Source: an uncultured Alphaproteobacteria bacterium (GTDB taxonomy: Bacteria > Pseudomonadota > Alphaproteobacteria > RF32 > CAG-239). Taken from it: a stretch of 56,740 bases of DNA. The stretch is taken from the NCBI GenBank assembly GCA_944390905.1, contig CALXRR010000003.1, positions 1 through 56,740 on the forward strand. Reading direction: 5' to 3'. The notes under the pieces were generated by a model. That model made no database searches. It was not told where the DNA came from and saw only the letters and a list, made by a program, of their open reading frames with translations. The translations under genes and the position numbers were made by a program. Position 1 is the first letter of the stretch; each line of letters opens with the position of its first letter. Positions 2,738 through 56,740 of this stretch are shown piece after piece.

Positions 2738-4909
2738 TTACTCACCTTCTTTAGGTTCCGCAGAAGCATCTACTTCAGCTTCAGGCACATTCTTAGCTTC
2801 CGATTCTTCAGACACCTCAGCATCACTAGCTTTTTGCGCCATCATTTCTGCTTTCAAACTCTTTACTTTTACTTCATCTTCAAGCTTAACTTCGCCTGGT
2901 ATATCTATGTTTTTATTCACAATTATATTATCAGAGATTGGTTCAGGCTGCGCCGTCACCTCTCCTTGTGAAGCAGTATTTTCGACCTCTTGTTCCGTTG
3001 CCGGCATTACCTCTTTACCATTAGCTTTGTTCCAATATTTAATCCACAATTCAAAAAACTTCTTTGCTTCTAATTGTGTTTTTTCATCAATATTAATAGC
3101 TTCAACTGATTTTTTCAGCTCTTCCATATCTGAACCTGTATCAACCGAACACTTAGAAGTCTTGAACAAATATGAATTGATTATATCTGTAGCATAGCAC
3201 ATTTGCGGTTTTACTTCAAAGCCATCAAATTTCGGATCTTTTATTGCAATATTAGTAAGCTTTTCATTACCAATAACCATCGCAAACGGCGTAGCTTCAT
3301 TGGTTAATTTAGTCTGAGGAGCACTAATTCCTTGTATCAACATGACAGTATTAGCCAAATCAAGCTTGCTGACAAAGTCTTCCAACTTTCCAAACAAACA
3401 AGTATATTGCTCAGCATAAGCCACCTGTCGTTTTTGCAATGTTTCATCATCATCACCGGTCGTTGAATAAGGAGACTTCAATGCAATCCAGTCTTTTTGA
3501 TTTTTCAGCATACAGAATTCATTATAAACAAACATATCTGCCGGCATATCTACATAGATATAATACGCCCCTTTTCCGGGATTATTGGCAATATCTTGCA
3601 ACACCTTATCAAAAACTTTAATTGAATCAACAACATAAAGCTTAGCATAAGATTTTCCAACAACCGGTATTTTTTCAGCATCTGTAACTTTATCGACTAC
3701 TCTAAATATCAGAGACGGAGCAACCTCATTACCAAATAAGCCGCTGCTTTCTAACCATTGCGCCACTAACAATAAAGAACGTTGCCCTACCGTAGTTGCC
3801 AGCTCATCAACATTAGCCGGAGTATTAAGCTTATTTACGCATCTATCGACTTGATAAGCCAATCTTGAGCGACACATATCCAAGCCTCTTGATTGATATG
3901 CATTAATCTGATAACCAGCTTTACGAAACGCATCAGAAACCTGATTTGATTGTAGCTCAATAGTTTTATCGTTTATCCTGTCAAATTGCCAATCTCTATC
4001 ATAAATTACCGGAGCAACGATTTGCTCTATTCCACCCCTAGCCAAAGGATTAAAAGCTAAGGCCTGATTTTGCTGTCCATTTTGATATTTAAGCAACGCA
4101 TTAGGATAAAGATTAAAACCATTTTTCACAAAAAATCCGAGCATAATTTTTTTCAGATTCTCCACTTTAGAATTGTCTTTTACATTCTGATTAAGCATTG
4201 AATCCAAATAATTATAAGATGCCGCATTAGACAATATAATATTAACAAATTTTTTGCCTGTTTCAGTAGAAATTTCACGAGGAGAAACATCTTCAACAAA
4301 ATCATGAGGAGCATATCGGTTAATATAAGCCGTAAACAACACATAGGCATTAATCAATAATAAGCTTCCAAGCAAATATCCCAAACTACTACGGTCAGCA
4401 AAAACCAAATACAGCAACACCAAGACAAATACTACGAGTGCCACCACCACATCAGAATATCCATATACAAAATCAGCCACACCGTCATTCACATAGATAC
4501 GCAACATATCGGTTAAAAATGCATATTTATCAAACAGTGCAAATTGTCCCAACATCATCAGCACAAACAACCCGGCTGTTATTGCAAGTAATATATTTTG
4601 CGCCCATGTTGAAAAGGATAACAACACCATCAGCACCAACGATGATATAAACACCCAACTGACGATGCGAATAACTTCCGGCGCCAAACTTCCATCTGAA
4701 AGGAAGACAGCATAATTTCCGGCTTTAGCAAACAAGCAAAAGTTAATAGATATAAGCACAGTCATCAACAAAGCCCTAATAAACAAATCAAGGCAATAAG
4801 CCCCAAAGCTTTTTGCTCTCAGGCTGATTGTTTTACCATCAACCACTACTTCAACCGGTTTACTATTATCAATAATAACATCATCCATAGGATTATTCCT
4901 TTTCAACAA
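2738..4909 (-). CDS. Membrane protein with ~5 N-terminal TM helices, a possible degenerate sulfatase/alkaline-phosphatase-like domain and an acidic tail
   Basis: 723-aa ORF; hydrophobic segments at about aa 40-195; true start may be the ATG at 4888. Confidence 0.6.
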   Translation of the reverse strand: MLKRNNPMDDVIIDNSKPVEVVVDGKTISLRAKSFGAYCLDLFIRALLMTVLISINFCLFAKAGNYAVFLSDGSLAPEVIRIVSWVFISSLVLMVLLSFSTWAQNILLAITAGLFVLMMLGQFALFDKYAFLTDMLRIYVNDGVADFVYGYSDVVVALVVFVLVLLYLVFADRSSLGYLLGSLLLINAYVLFTAYINRYAPHDFVEDVSPREISTETGKKFVNIILSNAASYNYLDSMLNQNVKDNSKVENLKKIMLGFFVKNGFNLYPNALLKYQNGQQNQALAFNPLARGGIEQIVAPVIYDRDWQFDRINDKTIELQSNQVSDAFRKAGYQINAYQSRGLDMCRSRLAYQVDRCVNKLNTPANVDELATTVGQRSLLLVAQWLESSGLFGNEVAPSLIFRVVDKVTDAEKIPVVGKSYAKLYVVDSIKVFDKVLQDIANNPGKGAYYIYVDMPADMFVYNEFCMLKNQKDWIALKSPYSTTGDDDETLQKRQVAYAEQYTCLFGKLEDFVSKLDLANTVMLIQGISAPQTKLTNEATPFAMVIGNEKLTNIAIKDPKFDGFEVKPQMCYATDIINSYLFKTSKCSVDTGSDMEELKKSVEAINIDEKTQLEAKKFFELWIKYWNKANGKEVMPATEQEVENTASQGEVTAQPEPISDNIIVNKNIDIPGEVKLEDEVKVKSLKAEMMAQKASDAEVSEESEAKNVPEAEVDASAEPKEGE

Positions 4910-4963
4910 ACAGAGTTAACCTCAGCTAGACTATCTAAGCATATTGCGTGCAATATTTAAAGC

Positions 4964-4997
4964 AAAAAACCTCGAGATTGCACAACAACCTCGAGGT
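4964..4997 (-). terminator. Intrinsic terminator of rpsD
   Basis: ACCTCGAG...CTCGAGGT stem followed by a T-run on the minus strand. Confidence 0.65.
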
Positions 4998-5021
4998 CTA
5001 TAATTTTGCTTTTGCTGATTA

Positions 5022-5636
5022 TTATCTTGAGTAGTACTCGATAACCAGATTCGGTTCCATAGTGCAAGCATAAGGCACATCTTCAAACTTCGGAACAAAA
5101 GTATATTTAGCAGTCAATTTCTTAGTATCAACTTCCAAATATCCCGGAATATCACGAGTAGCAGATTCCAAAGAAGCAGCAATCAACGGATTCTGTTTAG
5201 ATTTTTCTTTAACTTCAATAACATCGCCGACTTTAACCATATAAGAAGGAATGTTTACCTTTTTGCCATTAACCAAGATATGATTATGGCTTACCATTTG
5301 ACGAGCTGCAAATACGGTAGAAGCCAGTTTAGATCTATAAACCAAGTTATCCAAACGAGATTCCAAGATACCGATAAGGTTTTCAGCCGCATCGCCTCTT
5401 CTTCTGATGGCTTCGGCATAATATTTAGCAAACTGTTTTTCAGAAATATTACCATAAGAGCTTTTGAGCTTTTGCTTAGCATACAATTGCTCACCATAGT
5501 CGGTCATTTTCTTTTTTCTGGCACCATGCTGACCAGGAGCAGTTTCTCTTCTTGCAAAAGAAGAATGATTTTCGCCCCAAATGGAGGCACCATAACGGCG
5601 AGTAGCCTTTTTCTTAGCTTTAACAATACTTTTCAT
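5022..5636 (-). CDS. rpsD: 30S ribosomal protein S4
   Basis: [45 protein letters not shown] motifs. Confidence 0.97.
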
Positions 5637-5945
5637 TAGGTTCTATCCTTAATTATTTTAACTAACACATTATTGTTCCGGTAGTTTCGGACGACTTTCT
5701 TTTGAGCAACACACTTATCACCATATATAAGCGCCCTTATCAACCCTAAGCCTCATATATAAGCGCCATGTTGCCCCTAATCTCCCGAACGGGAAACATA
5801 ACAGCTATTTTTTATGCATCCACATTCCCGAAAGTGATGTGAATGTAACATATTTTTTTATAATTTCAAGTAAAATCTGCAAATACCGCTGGATTTTTTT
5901 TTCACTTCCGGCTACAATAACCGGCAGAAAGGATAAAATTGCCCA

Positions 5946-7697
5946 ATGTCATATGATTTGTTATTTTCGCAAGCACTTAAATTGCATGAGGCCGGTCGCC
6001 TTGACGAAGCCGAGCAAGTCTATCGTCAAATTCTTGAAACGGCACCACAAAACCCTGATGTAATCAACCTTCTGGGGCTCATTGCCCAAAGCAAGGGACT
6101 ACATGAGGAAGCCGCAGCCTTGTTTACTCAAGCGCTTAAAATCTCACCTGATTTCGCACCTTATTACTTTAACTTAGGCTTATCCTTTCTGAATCTTAAA
6201 CAATTACACCAAGCTGAAGATATGTTTTTGCAAGCTCTGCAACGCAAGCCTGATTTCAAGGAGGCTTTGCTTGAACTAGGTCACTTAGCTCAACTCCGTA
6301 ATGATTTTTCTCTTGCCCGCCAATATTTTACCCAAGCAGTTGCTATCGACACTGATTATGTTGAGGCTAAAGTTGAATTAGCACAATTATCATCTGACGC
6401 CCTAGCCGAGCTTGCCCAACTTTGCACTACTTACCCATCATTTCCGCAACCGTTTTTTGCTCTTAGCCAACTTTACCAACAGCAAGGCGAATATAAACCG
6501 GCAGTTGATTACGCCACCCAAGCCTTAACACTATCTCCGGATAATCCTGAAATTATGTTATTATTGGGCGATTTACACCATAGCCAAGGGCAAAATGACA
6601 CGGCTCAAAGGTATTACACCCAAGTTATGCAATTACAACCGTCTAATGTCGATGCCATAAAAAATATGGCTGACATTCTAACCCTAAATAAACAATTTTC
6701 TGCGGCTGAAACTCTGTATAAGCAAGCTCTGAACTATGCTCCCGAGCGTGCCGATATCCTGATAAATTATGCCGACATGCTCTACCGCGACCATCGCACT
6801 CAAGAAGCAGTTGAAATCTACCATAAAGCGGTAATTTTATCCCCCTCATCGCCTGAAATCAGCAATAATCTGGGCATCATCACCCGTGACCTTGGGGATT
6901 ATGAGGAAGCACTCGGCCTGTTTTTCAATGCATTGAACCTAGCCCCGCAACAAACCGCCATTTCTGCCAATATTGCCGAAACTTTAAGCTTATTCTCCAC
7001 CTCTGCGCCTGATAAAGCCGCACAAATTGCCGCCAACTGGCTTAAATCTTATCCTAATAATAGCTTTGCCCAGCACCTATCATCGGCTCTTGACCACAAG
7101 ACAGACACTCAAACACAATCCTCCGCCTACAGCCGCGACTTATTCAACCTCTTTGCCCCTGAATATGAGGCTAAGTTGCAAAAAATTGCTTATAACCTGC
7201 CGCAACAGCTCAAAACCATTTTGGGTGAATTATCCGGCAGTGTTATTGACTTAGGCTGCGGCACCGGCTTGGTTGCCGAGCAGTTCAAATCACCTCATAA
7301 CGATTTTATCGGGGTTGATATCTCAGCCGAAATGCTCAAACTCGCCGCTGCCAAAAATTTATATTCTCAGCTTTTTGAGCAAGATATCCTACATTTTTTA
7401 AGCACTTACCCCCTGCCCTCAGGCACTCAATTTATCGCCGCCGATGTTTTTTGCTACTTTGGTGACTTATCTCCGATACTGGAGCTTACTTTTCCGCACC
7501 CGATTTGCTTTTCAGTTGAAAAAAGCCAATCAAATACGCCTTTTGAGCTGACTACAACCGGACGTTTCAAACACTCCCCTGTCTCGATTAACACTTTGTT
7601 AAGAAAAATCGGCTATTCTACCATAAATCAATATTTTGTAACCTTACGGCAAGAAGCCGGACAAAATGTCGAAGGAGTAATCTTCACCGCCACATAA
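5946..7697 (+). CDS. TPR-repeat protein with C-terminal SAM-dependent methyltransferase
   Basis: Many TPR-like repeats; VIDLGCGTG motif I, GVDISAEML, AADVFCYFGDL, GRFKHS. Confidence 0.85.
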   Translation: MSYDLLFSQALKLHEAGRLDEAEQVYRQILETAPQNPDVINLLGLIAQSKGLHEEAAALFTQALKISPDFAPYYFNLGLSFLNLKQLHQAEDMFLQALQRKPDFKEALLELGHLAQLRNDFSLARQYFTQAVAIDTDYVEAKVELAQLSSDALAELAQLCTTYPSFPQPFFALSQLYQQQGEYKPAVDYATQALTLSPDNPEIMLLLGDLHHSQGQNDTAQRYYTQVMQLQPSNVDAIKNMADILTLNKQFSAAETLYKQALNYAPERADILINYADMLYRDHRTQEAVEIYHKAVILSPSSPEISNNLGIITRDLGDYEEALGLFFNALNLAPQQTAISANIAETLSLFSTSAPDKAAQIAANWLKSYPNNSFAQHLSSALDHKTDTQTQSSAYSRDLFNLFAPEYEAKLQKIAYNLPQQLKTILGELSGSVIDLGCGTGLVAEQFKSPHNDFIGVDISAEMLKLAAAKNLYSQLFEQDILHFLSTYPLPSGTQFIAADVFCYFGDLSPILELTFPHPICFSVEKSQSNTPFELTTTGRFKHSPVSINTLLRKIGYSTINQYFVTLRQEAGQNVEGVIFTAT

Positions 7698-20240: not shown

Positions 20241-20491
20241 CTCCCTCCCTGTTGTATAGGGAGGGGCGGGGTGGGTGAGATATAAAAGAATCTACTGTGA
20301 ATTATCTCACCCCTCTAACTTCTAGCTTCATAAGTTGCGCCGTGGGCTTAACAACTTCGCTTCGGTCACTCGACTTGTAAGACTTGTTTCGGTTAGCTAT
20401 CACTTTCTCACAAGTCAACAAGTCTTCGCTGTCATCAGCCAACAATTCGCAGGATTGTTGGCTATTCTCCAGCCCTATGCAACAGGGGGAG
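20241..20491. repeat. Inverted pair of REP-like palindromes, the right one interrupted by an insertion
   Basis: CTCCCTCCCTGTTGTATAGGGAGGGG...GGGTGAGATA on plus; CTCCCCCTGTTGCATAGGG[insert]AGTTAGAGGGGTGAGATA on minus. Confidence 0.65.
20319..20475 (-). repeat. ~155-bp multi-stem dispersed element, copy A
   Basis: Colinear with 56446-56598: shared ends and linkers, compensatory changes in stems. Confidence 0.75.
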
Positions 20492-20500
20492 AAAATTTGC

Positions 20501-22417
20501 TTAAAACTCCATGACCGGGCGAACAACGATGTTACTATAGTAGTTGGTCTTATAGTCGTAGCTCATATTGAACGAACCACTCGTATTGGCGCCGAAGTAC
20601 CACGCGAAGTTGGTGGAGTACTCAGACGACGACCAAACGTTCTCATAAGAATAGGAAGGTTGTCCACCATATCCTAATTTAGTGCCTCCGGCAGTGGTGA
20701 TACCGGCGTTGACTTTGGCGAAATTGACGGAATTATTAAGGTTGTTAAGCAAGTCATAAGATGGCAAACACCATGATTTACCGCTTGGTGTACCTGTCGG
20801 GTTATAATTATTTGCTGCAGTAGCAGCCGCATAACTGCTGCCCAAAGCAACCAGCTTTTGGGTATTGGTACAGCTGGCGCTAACCGTTTTATCGGTAATG
20901 CCGGTTGTTGTTCCATAACCCCACTTAATACCTGTCTGTATTGGTTTAACGGTCATTACCCAGCCGCCGCCGGAGGCGCCGTTAGAGTAGATAACCACGC
21001 CGAGCAGAGTTTTGCCGCTGACTTTACTGCTGGAGCAAGTGTTGTCACTATAATACAAAGTGCCGACTTCACAGACTGCGCGGTCAGTCTTACATGTTCC
21101 ACTGGTTGCATCCCATTTATAACCACTGGCGCATTTACATTGAGTATATTTTCCACCACAGGCGGAGCCTGTGCCACCGGCGTAGCCGGTGCCGGAGCAA
21201 GTGTATTTGTATTCGGACTGGCAGCTGATGCAATATACATAGCTGGTGTCAAATGGGCATTTGATAGTGCGCTCGGGGCAGGTTTGCTTTTTGTAGCCTA
21301 AACTAGAGCAGTCTTGATTGAGCGTACACCAGTCAGTGCCATTGCAAACGCACATTCCGCTGGATGAGTTCCAAGTGAAACCGGTAGCGCATTTACAGGC
21401 GGTATATTTTCCGCCACAAGCCGTACCCGACCCGCCGGTGATGTTGCTGCCCGAGCAGGTATATTTGTAGGTACTACCGCAAACACAAGTTCCGGTCGAC
21501 GCATTCCATGTGTATCCACTAGCGCATTTACACTTTTGATATTTGTTGTCACAGCTGTTGCCGTCGCCGCCGGAATATCCCGTCCCTGAACAAGTGTATT
21601 TGTACCCGGTTGAGCATACACATTTTTTCGCCGACACGCTCCATTCATACATGGTCGGGCAAGTGCACTTGGTGTAATAAGTTCCGGTGTCATCTTTACA
21701 GCTCGTTCCGCTACCGCTTGCAGAGCCGCAGTCAATATAAGTTCCGGTATTACTGCTATTAGTATCACACCTAATTTTATACTTAGTACCGGTACAGCTC
21801 TCACAGCTTCCGTTTTTGACGTGTCCGGCAGGAATATTGCTGGCGGTATAGTTATATCCGGTACATTTTTTGCAACATTCTTTATATTTGCCGTTGCAGG
21901 CAGTTCCTTTGCCTTGCTCGTCGGTGCCATTACAAGCCTTGTTGTATTCCGGTTTGCACTTACATCCCGTATGCCAACCATTATCATAAGGACAAAGAGT
22001 TCCTTTGTCTTGAGTAGAATTACAAACGGTGTTTACATAACCTTCCAGTTTGCACATATTATCAGTATCAGGATCAATCGGCCCCGCACCGCTGGAAGAA
22101 CTGCTATCCGTCCCCCCTCCCGCACCTCCGCAATTTCCCGCATCAGTGATGAAGCACACAGACGCCAAACGAGCACTTGACCCCACCCCTCTCTGGAGAG
22201 AGAGGGTGGCGGCTGAGCCGTCGGGAGAGTTGATTAACAAACGCTCAGCGTTTGCAAAATTGGACAAGGAAAGAAGTTTGGTTTGAGAAACAAGGTGTGT
22301 ATTATGTGTGTGTGAAGATAAATCTGTTTCTGATGGGAGAATACCGGCTTGGGCAGATAAAACACTACCTAAGCTTAGACAAGATACGGAAATCAATAAG
22401 TAAACATGCCGTTTCAT
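20501..22417 (-). CDS. Secreted Cys-rich repeat protein with C-terminal CLec-like domain; putative DGR target
   Basis: Signal peptide, YKYTCSG...C...KY..C.C..G..W repeats, WCLPSYDLL and VWSSSEY...AW...VRPVMEF C-terminus; GAGGAG RBS before ATG 22417. Confidence 0.8.
   Translation of the reverse strand: MKRHVYLLISVSCLSLGSVLSAQAGILPSETDLSSHTHNTHLVSQTKLLSLSNFANAERLLINSPDGSAATLSLQRGVGSSARLASVCFITDAGNCGGAGGGTDSSSSSGAGPIDPDTDNMCKLEGYVNTVCNSTQDKGTLCPYDNGWHTGCKCKPEYNKACNGTDEQGKGTACNGKYKECCKKCTGYNYTASNIPAGHVKNGSCESCTGTKYKIRCDTNSSNTGTYIDCGSASGSGTSCKDDTGTYYTKCTCPTMYEWSVSAKKCVCSTGYKYTCSGTGYSGGDGNSCDNKYQKCKCASGYTWNASTGTCVCGSTYKYTCSGSNITGGSGTACGGKYTACKCATGFTWNSSSGMCVCNGTDWCTLNQDCSSLGYKKQTCPERTIKCPFDTSYVYCISCQSEYKYTCSGTGYAGGTGSACGGKYTQCKCASGYKWDATSGTCKTDRAVCEVGTLYYSDNTCSSSKVSGKTLLGVVIYSNGASGGGWVMTVKPIQTGIKWGYGTTTGITDKTVSASCTNTQKLVALGSSYAAATAANNYNPTGTPSGKSWCLPSYDLLNNLNNSVNFAKVNAGITTAGGTKLGYGGQPSYSYENVWSSSEYSTNFAWYFGANTSGSFNMSYDYKTNYYSNIVVRPVMEF
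20504..20638 (-). other. Putative DGR variable region
   Basis: Last 45 codons: none ends in A; runs of NNC/NNT codons between largely A-free scaffold codons. Confidence 0.65.
22183..22229. repeat. REP-like double hairpin lying in frame inside the CDS
   Basis: CCACCCCTCTCT-GGAG-AGAGAGGGTGG plus GGCGGC-TGA-GCCGTC; similar architecture at 56145-56187. Confidence 0.5.
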
Positions 22418-22570
22418 GATAATATCTCCTCGCAAACCTCTTTCCTACGAGTCTCATACTATCACAATTTTTCATTATTGTAAACACTAATTTTTCAAAA
22501 CCGGCAAAATATTGCACTGCTCCCCAATCAAGCTCAGAAAATGGAGTTTTTATAAAATTAAGCTAATATT

Positions 22571-56187: not shown

Positions 56188-56217
56188 CGATTAACCGTAA
56201 ATGCCGGCATATATATT

Positions 56218-56368
56218 GCACCAAACAAAATGACCCAAAGTTCGGGTCAAGCTGGCACCGAGAGCATGAAAAAAAGTTTAGGCACAATCTTACAACCAAT
56301 ATAAACAGAGCAACGCGACTTCATGGCACCAAACAAGATGGCGCAAAGTTAGGGGGTCAAGCTGGCAC
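56218..56368 (+). repeat. Two ~42-bp imperfect direct repeats with 108-bp period
   Basis: GCACCAAACAA.ATG.C.CAAAGTT...GGGTCAAGCTGGCAC at 56218-56258 and 56326-56368. Confidence 0.8.
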
Positions 56369-56431
56369 AGCTTGGGTTCGAACCCCCATATTACAAAAAA
56401 AAGCCCGTTAACTAAAACGGACTTTATAAAA

Positions 56432-56621
56432 TGGTAGGCGCGTGGGGGCTGGAGTAGAAAAACAATCCAGTGGATTGTTTTTCGCCGACAGGCGAAGTCT
56501 TCTTGTCTTGCAAGGAAGCGAGAGCGACCGCGGCAAGACGTAGGAGACGAGTGACCGCAGCGAGTTAGGCTTTAGGATAAAGCCTTATGAGCCAGAAGAA
56601 CCCTTTAGGGTTCGAACCCCA
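56432..56621 (-). repeat. Duplicated tRNA-Lys 3' end, split by an insertion
   Basis: TGGTAGGCGCGTGGGGG (56432-56448) and GGGTTCGAACCCCA (56608-56621) match the tRNA 3' end starting at 56666. Confidence 0.85.
56446..56598 (+). repeat. ~155-bp multi-stem dispersed element, copy B
   Basis: Colinear with the reverse complement of 20319-20475. Confidence 0.75.
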
Positions 56622-56626
56622 CACAG

Positions 56627-56658
56627 AAAAAAGCCTGCTTCAAAAAGAAGCAGGCTTT
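56627..56658 (-). terminator. tRNA-Lys terminator
   Basis: AAAGCCTGCTTC...GAAGCAGGCTTT followed by T-run on the minus strand. Confidence 0.8.
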
Positions 56659-56665
56659 AAACAAA

Positions 56666-56740
56666 TGGTAGGCGCGTGGGGGTTCGAACCCCAGACCCAC
56701 TGATTAAGAGTCAGTTGCTCTACCAACTGAGCTACGCACC
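56666..56740 (-). tRNA. tRNA-Lys (CTT), first base beyond the window edge
   Basis: Reverse complement GGTGCGTAGCTCAGTTGGTAGAGCAACTGACTCTTAATCAGTGGGTCTGGGGTTCGAACCCCCACGCGCCTACCA. Confidence 0.95.

Follow-up and report, generated by a model that had tools for sequence, protein, structure and literature searches.

Two diverged copies of a structured element of about 155 nt, found in the genome of an uncultured gut alphaproteobacterium, belong to a previously uncatalogued family of hairpin-rich repeats. These repeats sit directly 3' of a run of G in a DNA hairpin, above all in the T-loops of spare partial tRNA gene copies, and no recognisable enzyme that would move them was found. The window analysed here is a stretch of 56,740 nt (assembly GCA_944390905.1, lineage RF32/CAG-239, contig CALXRR010000003.1, positions 1 to 56,740), which contains one copy on the minus strand (copy A) and one on the plus strand (copy B). 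In the 1.63-Mb genome as a whole (referred to as G000), the family comprises 11 full copies and 1 partial copy. Our preferred reading, held with moderate confidence, is that these copies represent a new family of non-autonomous, strand-specific mobile elements, although an RNA role is not excluded.

The element and its predicted fold

The original prediction described two diverged copies of an unrecognised structured element with compensatory base changes, and this observation is confirmed. Both copies lie at the predicted positions and strands, and every motif and stem that had been listed is present, namely GGGCTGGAG at the 5' end, GACAG(G)CGAAG, GAGTGACCG.AGCGA, CTTATGA(A)GCYAGAAG at the 3' end, and the arms of P2, P3 outer, P3 inner and P4 (Table 1). 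A pairwise alignment of the two copies with their flanks has 76% mean column identity. Both copies fold better than shuffled sequences, and do so on both strands, with z scores of -3.89 (sense) and -4.19 (antisense) for copy A, and of -5.47 (sense) and -5.34 (antisense) for copy B. The general anatomy of the element is a left end, GCTGGAGG; hairpin P2; a conserved linker that carries a GACA loop; a long two-part hairpin, P3, tipped by a second GACA loop; the nearly invariant linker (C/A)(G/A)AGTGACCG(C/A)AGCGAGTTAG; a variable hairpin, P4; and a right end, CTTACGAGC(C/A)AGA(A/G)G.

Table 1. Coordinates of the two copies, their parts and their surroundings in the window
Position	Strand	Feature	Observation
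20319..20475	-	Copy A, full element downstream of a DGR target gene	Covariance-model hit at 20317-20477, 164.3 bits, E 3.2e-37
20437..20463	-	Copy A, P2 hairpin (AGCCAACAAT / ATTGTTGGCT)	Covariation
20424..20436	-	Copy A, conserved linker J2/3 (GATGACAGCGAAG)	
20373..20424	-	Copy A, P3, a two-part long hairpin with an internal loop and a GNRA-type tip	
20357..20372	-	Copy A, conserved linker J3/4 (CGAGTGACCGAAGCGA)	Invariant block
20333..20356	-	Copy A, P4 variable hairpin	
20319..20332	-	Copy A, conserved 3' end (TATGAAGCTAGAAG)	
20473..20491	-	Target REP-like hairpin (CTCCCCCT GTTGCAT AGGG)	The element follows its G-run
20501..22435	-	644-aa ORF whose 3' end matches the DGR template repeat; a DGR target gene	Copy A starts 25 nt after its stop codon; no Pfam hit
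56446..56598	+	Copy B, full element beside tRNA-Lys(ctt)	Covariance-model hit at 56444-56600, 172.2 bits, E 3.6e-39
56457..56483	+	Copy B, P2 hairpin	
56484..56497	+	Copy B, small GACA-loop hairpin P2a plus linker J2/3	
56498..56547	+	Copy B, P3 long hairpin	
56548..56566	+	Copy B, linker J3/4 (CGAGTGACCGCAGCGAGTT)	
56567..56585	+	Copy B, P4 hairpin	
56586..56598	+	Copy B, conserved 3' end	
56432..56448	+	Reverse complement of the tRNA-Lys 3' end (acceptor and T-stem 3' strands)	Ends in the G-run that the element follows; a direct repeat of the real tRNA's 3' end on the minus strand
56598..56626	+	Fold-back flank: GAACCC, TTTA, then a T-arm-like GGGTTCGAACCCC	Same architecture in other Lys-linked copies
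56630..56658	-	Terminator-like hairpin directly after tRNA-Lys	Differs from the ancestral terminator
56400..56425	-	Second terminator-like hairpin after the duplicated tRNA 3' end	Homologous to the terminator at the empty locus of relative G001
56666..56740	-	tRNA-Lys(ctt) gene	Cut by the window end

A covariance model built from 5 copies of this genome recovered both window copies, as well as 9 more full copies and the 1 partial copy. When the search was extended to 36 genomes of the same bacterial family, matches were found in 34, with 0 to at least 48 per genome and no copy in G003 and G021, while only 1 of 24 other families sampled had a match. Eight of 80 stretches from a pattern search of genome contigs came from non-proteobacterial records (Pirellulaceae, Saccharibacteria, Anaerolineales and others), but these are chance pattern matches, since 0 of 8 gave a model hit at E up to 1e-8.

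The compensatory changes hold up on independent copies. On 73 distinct copies from other genomes, 29 of 29 modelled pairs change on both sides, and 91.5% of cells are paired, against 65.2% in shuffles (0 of 500 shuffles reached the observed value) and 37 to 49% with slid partners. Although this alignment was fitted to the structure of the model, pairing in P2 and P3 is strongly supported. P4 is a variable hairpin between conserved flanks; it folds better than shuffles in 87 of 97 distinct segments, and those segments hold 91 distinct 12-mers. On the contrary, the proposed closing pair between CTGG and CYAG is only weakly supported, as some copies compensate (CTTG with CAAG) while others carry CTGG with CAAG.

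The absence of the element from Rfam had been named beforehand as a condition for its novelty, and no Rfam 15 family matches. A search of the whole window at the gathering score returned only 3 tRNAs, and a search with both copies at E up to 10 returned nothing over the element except weak, chance-level hits centred on neighbouring terminators. Thus, no hammerhead, twister, HDV-like, hatchet, pistol, group I/II, HEARO or tRNA-like family was matched. Copy A contains CUGAUGA, which had suggested a hammerhead, but other copies lack it. Literature searches, confined to listings and the beginnings of abstracts, gave nothing that describes this element, which is not proof that it is unpublished.

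Insertion sites and signs of mobility

The original prediction that both copies start right after a G-run inside a palindrome is correct, and it generalises. Of 46 copies from 30 genomes, 28 lie within 100 nt of a tRNA gene called by ARAGORN, and their flanks are identical to the T-stem and to the T-loop, acceptor and CCA of that tRNA. The hairpin in these cases is the T-loop or anticodon loop of a partial tRNA copy beside the intact gene, and copies sit in proline anticodon loops. At least 13 different tRNA species are used, and copies occur in both orientations relative to the tRNA. In the high-copy relative G010, 20 of 23 copies examined follow (C/T)AGGG in REP-like hairpins, and all 20 are in the same orientation, while one copy of the same near-identical subfamily lies at tRNA-Val.

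Several lines of evidence suggest that the element behaves as mobile DNA. The tRNA-Lys locus is empty in relatives G001, G003, G012 and G007, holds full copies in G000, G008 and G011, and holds truncated remnants in G002 and G010. G001 and G008 differ by the element, a 42-nt filler and a direct duplication of about 60 nt, a difference compatible with either gain or precise loss between direct repeats. Moreover, DNA contigs of 3 of 4 sequencing runs, from 3 studies, join 20313 to 20474 and skip copy A; these putative empty-site contigs have only 27 letters on the shorter side, however, which is below the cautionary limit of 30. A search of G007 for orthologous empty sites of the REP-type insertions of G010 matched only the element itself, as the flanks were too diverged. 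Head-to-tail arrays occur with periods of about 147-155 nt and about 233-250 nt. Nine of 12 short model hits keep only the J3/4-P4-3' end, and none keeps only the 5' part; the copy on contig C38 of the own genome is also 5'-truncated. A tree of the copies mixes tRNA-specific clades across genomes with within-genome pairs.

No mobilising enzyme was identified. The own genome and G010 each have only two PF00589 tyrosine recombinases, which are Xer-like (312 and 317 aa in G000), and no dedicated integrase was found. A Y1 HUH transposase (PF01797) occurs in 4 of 15 family genomes searched, but not in G000, G007 or G010 at E up to 0.001. The Y2 transposase of IS91 (PF04986) occurs in 0 of 16 family genomes. 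IS110 (PF01548) is over the cut-off in 3 of 24 family genomes, and does not match in G000 or G017, while TnpB (PF07282) is over the cut-off in 0 of 25 genomes. The small serine recombinase was not found in G014, which holds 14 copies. The only reverse transcriptase (RT) found is a DGR RT, and it does not track copy number.

Interpretation and competing readings

The interpretation offered with the original prediction, that the element is a structure-selected non-coding RNA, a ribozyme or a single-stranded DNA mobile element targeting hairpins, is partly supported. Selection on the fold, the lack of a matching Rfam family, the targeting of G-runs in hairpins and the behaviour as mobile DNA are supported. 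On the other hand, these data do not show that the element is an RNA, no ribozyme family was matched, and a single-stranded DNA intermediate is an inference for which no HUH enzyme was found in this genome. We consider the family, its fold, its targets, its polymorphism, its arrays and its 5'-truncated copies to be established by the analysis, whereas the manner of movement, the enzyme and any expression or activity as RNA belong to inference.

In our preferred reading, the copies are small, non-coding, non-autonomous mobile elements of about 150-170 bp, joined in one orientation directly 3' of a run of G (RGGG^) that forms part of a DNA hairpin. In REP-like hairpins the G-run is in the 3' strand, while in tRNA genes it is the T-stem before the T-loop, or the GGG of a proline anticodon loop. 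The T-arm is close to a palindrome and so offers a G-run on both strands, which would explain why copies occur in both orientations relative to the tRNA. An insertion into a single-copy tRNA gene would be lethal, and in this view surviving copies therefore lie in a partial duplicate of the tRNA 3' part next to an intact gene. The 5' edge of that duplicate is a fold-back (a short inverted copy), which we read as the scar of break repair or template switching at the hairpin. Within this reading, it appears about as likely as not that the element moves through a single-stranded intermediate whose P2-P3-P4 fold is recognised by the mobilising machinery, and that it is copied or pasted from the fixed 3' end, as in IS200/IS605-type or rolling-circle elements, by an as yet unidentified enzyme acting in trans. 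Besides the fact that no such enzyme was found, some observations weigh against this reading. Deep conservation of the unpaired linkers and of the two GNRA-type loops across genera would also fit a functional RNA; Lys-, Ser-, Arg- and Pro-linked copies form cross-genome clades, such that some copies may be old residents kept by selection rather than recent insertions; and the long tRNA duplications are unlike any standard target-site duplication.

The strongest, though still unlikely, alternative is a functional structured RNA of the host or of the tRNA operons, such as a tRNA-linked small RNA or a ribozyme, whose T-stem and acceptor-like flanks would provide a tRNA-like handle for processing or stability, with multi-copy spread being secondary. 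In its favour are the strong covariation, the two conserved GACA tetraloop-like loops and long invariant unpaired linkers, the persistence of the tRNA-linked clades across genera whose coding DNA is only 63-69% identical, the retention of the J3/4-P4-3' module in truncated copies, and the location of copy A in the 3' untranslated region of a gene on the same strand. However, copies lie in both orientations relative to the tRNA and sit behind terminator-like hairpins, no promoter-like site lies next to either window copy, G.U cells are hardly more frequent than A.C cells (49 against 33, and 28 against 27), and both strands fold equally well. In addition, copy number ranges from 0 to at least 48 among genomes of one genus, and the burst of near-identical copies in REP hairpins of G010 is the behaviour of selfish DNA. 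Were this reading nonetheless true, the element would be a new, abundant RNA family of an uncultured gut lineage.

Two further readings appear less likely still. The element might be a retro-element in the manner of a SINE, an RNA copy of which would be reverse-transcribed from its 3' end at a nick next to the G-run or hairpin by the resident DGR RT or another RT, giving 5'-truncated copies, variable duplications and fold-back junctions. The 5' truncations, duplications of variable length (from a few nt to about 60-75 nt) and inverted junction pieces agree with this, as does the presence in the own genome of a DGR with bAvd, three template repeats and an RT. Copy A, a copy on contig C1 and a partial copy lie next to DGR target ends or next to the DGR itself, and the four highest-copy genomes included in the RT search (G007, G008, G010 and G017) all have an RT. 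Nonetheless, no RT was found in G024, G030 or G032, all 100% complete, which hold 21, 11 and 19 copies, or in G014, and G003 has the RT but no copy. The burst copies of G010 show no adenine-specific changes (variable columns by consensus base are A 10 of 47, C 8 of 31, G 21 of 48 and T 10 of 30), and the full-length 5' junction is precise while the 3' tail varies, the reverse of what target-primed reverse transcription usually gives. Copies next to DGR targets seem instead to reflect shared REP hairpins. Alternatively, the element might be the conserved non-coding module of tiny integrating circles of about 240-260 nt (tRNA 3' end, terminator, spacer and element) that enter tRNA genes by site-specific or short-homology recombination using a host recombinase such as XerCD, like miniature integrative elements or IMEX. 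Direct repeats of the tRNA 3' end flank the unit, the terminator next to tRNA-Lys in the window differs from the ancestral one kept after the duplicate, which suggests imported DNA, some arrays have a period of about 233-250 nt, and the two ends of the element are imperfect direct repeats of which array junctions are hybrids. However, REP-hairpin insertions carry no tRNA piece and no long repeat, element-only arrays of about 147 nt exist, and many tRNA species are used although the own genome has only two Xer-like recombinases. A dif-like site found at window position 67 shows no likeness to the ends of the element.

A bolder possibility, which we regard as doubtful although the evidence leaves room for it, is a new class of mobile element that recognises the universal hairpins of tRNA genes (the T-arm and the anticodon arm) and REP hairpins by their structure plus a G-run. 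It would propagate without any element-encoded or recognisable transposase, either through host replication and repair enzymes or through an activity of its own folded strand, and insertion would provoke fold-back duplication of the tRNA 3' half, so that the gene survives. A second, unrelated short insert in the same T-loop position of other partial tRNA copies hints that the T-loop landing pad is a general mechanism in these bacteria.

Related systems and consequences for annotation

Palindrome-associated elements derived from IS200/IS605 (PATEs) and REPINs, which are mobilised by Y1 HUH transposases or RAYTs, are likewise small and non-coding, lack terminal inverted repeats, have hairpins near both ends (here P2 and P4), join strand-specifically 3' of a short fixed target, associate with REP-type hairpins and reach high and variable copy numbers. 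Only a 4-nt CTGG/CCAG match exists between the ends of the present element. It differs from PATEs and REPINs in the absence of a Y1 enzyme from the own genome and from G007 and G010, a much larger conserved fold with invariant linkers, a G-run target in tRNA T-loops or anticodon loops, long fold-back duplications of the tRNA and frequent 5' truncation. A classical MITE derived from a DDE insertion sequence would have terminal inverted repeats and a target-site duplication of fixed length, whereas the ends here are imperfect direct repeats; a possible 4-nt AGGG duplication at REP sites is ambiguous, because the target itself repeats AGGG. Rolling-circle elements (IS91/ISCR, Helitrons) share the lack of inverted terminal repeats, a hairpin about 12-15 nt before the 3' end, head-to-tail arrays, truncated copies and variable 3' tails, but the present element is far smaller, its target is a G-run in a hairpin, and the Y2 transposase was not found in the genomes searched. 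The missing DEDD recombinase in the own genome and in most of the 24 family genomes searched does not fit an IS110 bridge-RNA element, and the lack of TnpB over the cut-off in the 25 genomes searched and of a HEARO match does not fit a TnpB/IscB guide RNA (omega RNA).

Genomic islands and prophages integrate into tRNA genes at the T-loop or anticodon loop, and, as here, leave an intact tRNA followed by a direct repeat of its 3' part that starts in the T-loop or anticodon arm. However, the "island" in this case is only about 160-260 nt and codes for nothing, it has a fold-back at its inner edge, the same element also lands in REP hairpins, and no integrase beyond the two Xer-like genes is present. 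Group I introns occur in bacterial tRNA anticodon loops, and in one relative (G034) a tRNA-Pro(tgg) gene is interrupted by the element at position 37/38, which ARAGORN calls an intron. The insert is about 150 nt with no group I core, though, an intact paralogous tRNA-Pro(tgg) exists in the same genome, and most copies lie in partial, not whole, tRNA genes. Rickettsia palindromic elements are alphaproteobacterial, about 100-150 bp long, strongly structured and interspersed, can sit inside RNA or protein genes and have no known transposase, and the likeness to the present family rests on these general features alone. They differ in that they are known for in-frame insertion into protein genes, whereas the present family lands after G-runs in hairpins of tRNA gene copies and REPs.

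The element links three things rarely seen together, that is, a deeply conserved fold with compensatory changes, strand-specific targeting of G-runs in hairpins that include the tRNA T-loop, and fold-back duplication of tRNA 3' halves, all without a known mobilising enzyme. Finding that enzyme, or showing that none is needed, would add a new route of DNA mobility, and could also yield a structure-guided insertion tool. In some of these genomes of 1.3-1.9 Mb, the element accounts for dozens of repeats and marks most tRNA loci. It breaks assemblies, as contigs C3, C22, C38, C58 and C72 end in or beside copies, and it can mislead tRNA, intron and prophage callers. For example, a search for a viral origin gave hits in IMG/VR and one in a GenBank record filed as "Bacteriophage sp.", while plasmids gave no match. 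Both IMG/VR hits and the GenBank hit are the same host tRNA-Pro locus, and in one case a prophage with a large serine recombinase lies beside it.

The repeat family and its predicted fold

The original prediction described two copies of one structured element, and this observation held: copy A and copy B share the 5' GGGCTGGAG, the linkers GACAG(G)CGAAG and GAGTGACCG.AGCGA, and the 3' CTTATGA(A)GCYAGAAG, while their P2, P3, and P4 arms differ in sequence but keep pairing. Each copy folds well below its shuffles (z of -3.89 for copy A and -5.47 for copy B), and the reverse strands fold about as well (z of -4.19 and -5.34, respectively). No Rfam 15 family matches. At gathering score, only three tRNAs were found over the whole window, and at E up to 10, only chance-level hits centered on neighboring terminators were found over either copy. 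Among these was a sub-threshold twister-P3 match (26.8 bits against a gathering score of 39.9; E 0.0025), which is built from the T-arm-like flank and the tRNA-Lys terminator and is probably due to chance.

To investigate whether the two copies are an isolated pair, motif searches and a covariance model (R1) built from five own-genome copies were run on the 1.63-Mb, 74-contig source genome (G000), which yielded 11 full copies and one internal fragment. R1 was then run on 60 relatives, where it matched 34 of 36 genomes of the same family, with 0 to 48 matches per genome (48 being the number of candidates scored and thus a floor), but only 1 of 24 other families sampled. An exact-pattern scan of 185,579 species genomes returned at least 119 stretches. 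Of the 80 stretches listed, 72 are titled as uncultured Alphaproteobacteria, proteobacterium, or Azospirillum(-aceae) genomes from human, rabbit, deer, sheep, and other guts, and the other eight gave no model hit. DNA runs containing this window are chicken, bird, gut, and manure metagenomes.

The fold is selected. In an alignment of 73 distinct copies from those other genomes (A6), 91.5% of 2,039 cells form standard pairs, compared with 65.2% in column-shuffled controls (0 of 500 shuffles reached the observed value) and 37-49% with slid partners, and all 29 modeled pairs show changes on both sides. While A6 was fitted to the model, which favors the structure, an RNAalifold run on six own-genome copies, not fitted to any model, had already given 16 of 39 pairs with compensatory changes. 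P4 is framed by a conserved AGTTAG...CTTAC and varies freely (91 distinct 12-mers among 97 distinct segments); even so, 87 of 97 segments fold better than their shuffles, and 80 of 97 form at least six pairs. Two GACA loops are conserved, one in the small P2a hairpin and the other at the tip of P3. In contrast, the closing helix CTGG/CYAG suggested in the original prediction is weak. The two ends look more like imperfect direct repeats (GCTGGAGGA and GCCAGAAGA), and junctions inside arrays are hybrids of them.

The element may act as RNA or as DNA. G.U cells barely outnumber A.C cells in A6 (49 against 33), and the two are equal in alignment A5 (28 against 27). Moreover, both strands fold alike, neither window copy has a promoter-like site, and copy B lies between two terminator-like hairpins of the opposite strand.

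Insertion sites and evidence of mobility

Of 46 copies from 30 genomes, 28 lie within 100 nt of an ARAGORN-called tRNA gene, and most of the rest have tRNA-derived flanks or stand in arrays. At least 13 tRNA species are used: Lys, Phe, Ser, Asp, Leu, Glu, Thr, His, Val, Arg, Pro, Ala, and Met. The 5' flank of these tRNA-linked copies always ends in a G-run that equals the T-stem of the neighboring tRNA, for example GTATCGGGGG for tRNA-Ser, and the 3' flank continues with the rest of the T-loop, the T-stem 3' strand, the acceptor strand, and CCA. For proline tRNAs, the G-run is the anticodon GGG. The interrupted tRNA is only a partial copy, which starts at the T-stem, the variable loop, or the anticodon stem and lies 60-85 nt beyond an intact gene and its terminator. 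The inner edge of that partial copy is a fold-back, an inverted copy of its first 6-40 nt, which is always on the side facing the intact gene, whichever way the element points. The element occurs in both orientations relative to the tRNA, which fits the near-palindromic T-arm offering a G-run before the loop on both strands. Copy B is of the inverted kind: its 5' flank is the reverse complement of the tRNA-Lys 3' end, and its 3' flank is GAACCC-TTTA-GGGTTCGAACCCC. In relative G034 (loci L180/L046 on contig C5 and L181 on contig C12), a complete tRNA-Pro(tgg) gene is split at position 37/38 by the element, which ARAGORN calls a 136-nt intron, and an intact paralogous tRNA-Pro(tgg) with a similar downstream gene lies elsewhere in the genome.

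Other copies are linked to REP-like hairpins. In relative G010, 20 of 23 fetched copies belong to one near-identical subfamily, each following (C/T)AGGG in the G-rich strand of CCCTCCCT...AGGGAGGG hairpins, all in one orientation. A further copy of the same subfamily sits at tRNA-Val, a copy of another subfamily sits at tRNA-His, and one copy is unclear. Copy A and its 97%-identical twin on own-genome contig C1 are of this REP kind; they follow AGGG of the hairpin CTCCCCCT-GTTGCAT-AGGG, 25 nt after the stop codon of genes that end in a DGR variable region.

Coordinates of the two copies and of associated features, or of the regions that hold them
Feature	Sequence	Coordinates	Strand
Copy A	Window	20475-20319	minus
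Copy B	Window	56446-56598	plus
5' flank of copy B	Window	56432-56448
3' flank of copy B	Window	56598-56620
Sub-threshold twister-P3 match	Window	56600-56669	plus
644-aa ORF with a variable-region terminus	Window	20501-22435
Second REP family	Window	56340-56390 and about 56200-56330
dif-like site	Window	about 55-95
DGR system	Own-genome contig C61 (L198)	4044-6567
DGR, bAvd	Own-genome contig C61	6175-6567	minus
DGR, three tandem template-repeat units	Own-genome contig C61	about 5400-6170
DGR, RT	Own-genome contig C61	4044-5378	minus
Second short T-loop insert	Own-genome contig C24	25950-26160
Second short T-loop insert	Own-genome contig C28	1-280
Second short T-loop insert	Own-genome contig C18	3850-3921
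Linker-like stretch before REP hairpins	Own-genome contig C21	7230-7400
Linker-like stretch before REP hairpins	Own-genome contig C37	6700-6880
Prophage beside the tRNA-Pro locus	IMG/VR contig L179	10185-11891

Several lines of evidence point to mobility. Copy number ranges from 0 to at least 48 among genomes of one genus and family. The tRNA-Lys locus is empty in relatives G001, G003, G012, and G007, holds full copies in G000, G008, and G011 (two in tandem in G011), and holds only the 3' 60-100 nt of the element in G002 and G010. G001 and G008 share flanks, and differ by the element, a 42-nt filler, and a direct duplication of about 60 nt that runs from the T-stem 3' strand to 14 nt past the terminator. 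In the window, the terminator beside tRNA-Lys differs from the ancestral one, which is kept after the duplicate. In addition, contigs of three of four DNA runs, from three studies, join window position 20313 to 20474, skipping 160 nt with 11 other letters between, which restores a complete REP hairpin ...AGGTGGAG followed by TTAGAG; as the shorter side is only 27 letters, this finding is suggestive rather than firm.

Head-to-tail arrays were of two types: those of the element only, with a period of about 147-155 nt, and those of the element plus a tRNA piece plus a terminator, with a period of about 233-250 nt. Of 12 short or low-scoring model hits examined, nine keep only the J3/4-P4-3' end next to the usual flank, and none keeps only the 5' part. 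The own-genome copy on contig C38 is also 5'-truncated. A tree of 46 copies shows Ser, Lys, Arg, Pro, and REP clades that cross genomes, as well as within-genome pairs such as G000 Lys with G000 Phe, which points to both long residence and movement or conversion.

Search for a mobilizing enzyme and interpretation

Profile searches of the family genomes did not reveal a likely engine. Only two tyrosine recombinases, of Xer size, were found in G000, and two in G010. A Y1 HUH enzyme was found in 4 of 15 genomes, but not in G000, G007, or G010, and an IS91 Y2 enzyme in 0 of 16. IS110 was over the cut-off in 3 of 24 genomes, with none in G000 or G017, and TnpB was over the cut-off in 0 of 25 genomes (16 of them family genomes). 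Small serine recombinases were not found in G014, which has 14 copies. The only RT in the own genome belongs to a DGR, with bAvd, three template repeats, and an RT on contig C61. Two results argue against this RT as the engine: RTs were not found in G024, G030, G032, or G014, which hold 21, 11, 19, and 14 copies, respectively, whereas G003 has an RT but holds no copy; and the burst of copies in G010 shows no adenine-specific changes. A dif-like site at window position 67, with a CATAAT-ATATAT-TATG core and four mismatches to the proteobacterial pattern, could be the chromosome dimer resolution site, but bears no likeness to the element.

Hits in "viral" collections are the host tRNA-Pro locus, once with a prophage beside it. 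In the latter case (the IMG/VR contig L179), a prophage with a large serine recombinase (phrog_95, E 3.5e-104) and a terminase is integrated just past the duplicated tRNA-Pro 3' end that follows the element. GenBank MT837050.1, labeled "Bacteriophage sp.", is the same host locus without the prophage.

The original prediction interpreted the element as a structure-selected ncRNA, a ribozyme, or an ssDNA mobile element that targets hairpins, and this was partly supported. The anatomy and behavior fit a non-autonomous, strand-specific mobile element, with no coding capacity, no inverted ends, hairpins near both ends, one-orientation joining after a short G-run in hairpins, and bursts, arrays, and truncations anchored at the 3' end. 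It works most like IS200/IS605-derived elements or rolling-circle elements, but cannot be assigned to either because the enzymes are missing. The partial tRNA duplicates with fold-back edges are best read as repair products that let a cell survive an insertion aimed at an essential hairpin; while the duplicates themselves are observed, this step is inferred. A host RNA function, although unlikely, remains a live rival because of the deep conservation of unpaired segments and GNRA-type loops. RT-mediated spread and Xer-type mini-circles appear less likely still.

Small structured interspersed repeats are already known in bacteria. Nothing in Rfam matched the present one, and full-text literature searches, of which only the listings were considered, returned nothing that describes it. 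Its unusual features are T-loop and anticodon-loop targeting, fold-back tRNA duplication, and the lack of a visible transposase, which together could turn out to mark a new mechanism.

Neighboring DGR, REP, and tRNA-derived sequences

The DGR system on contig C61 is very large. Its three tandem template-repeat units are about 250 nt each, and more than 40 gene ends across the genome carry the matching GTTCGCCCGGT variable-region terminus, one of which is the 644-aa ORF in the window. Another REP family, GGGGGTCAAGCTGGCACAGCTTG, is common after DGR target genes, and in the window is fused to a T-arm-like GGGTTCGAACCCCC piece.

A second, unrelated short insert of about 90-100 nt sits in the T-loop of other partial tRNA copies (Val, Pro, and Glu) on own-genome contigs C24, C28, and C18. 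In two cases, it ends ...GCGAACAAGCC, and on C18 it lies directly after a copy of the main element. The T-loop of spare tRNA pieces therefore seems to be a general landing pad. On contigs C21 and C37, a GGTGACCGA(C/T)GCA(A/G)GCGGCAGCG stretch precedes REP hairpins; it resembles the element's GTGACCG.AGCG linker and may be a related or degenerate repeat.
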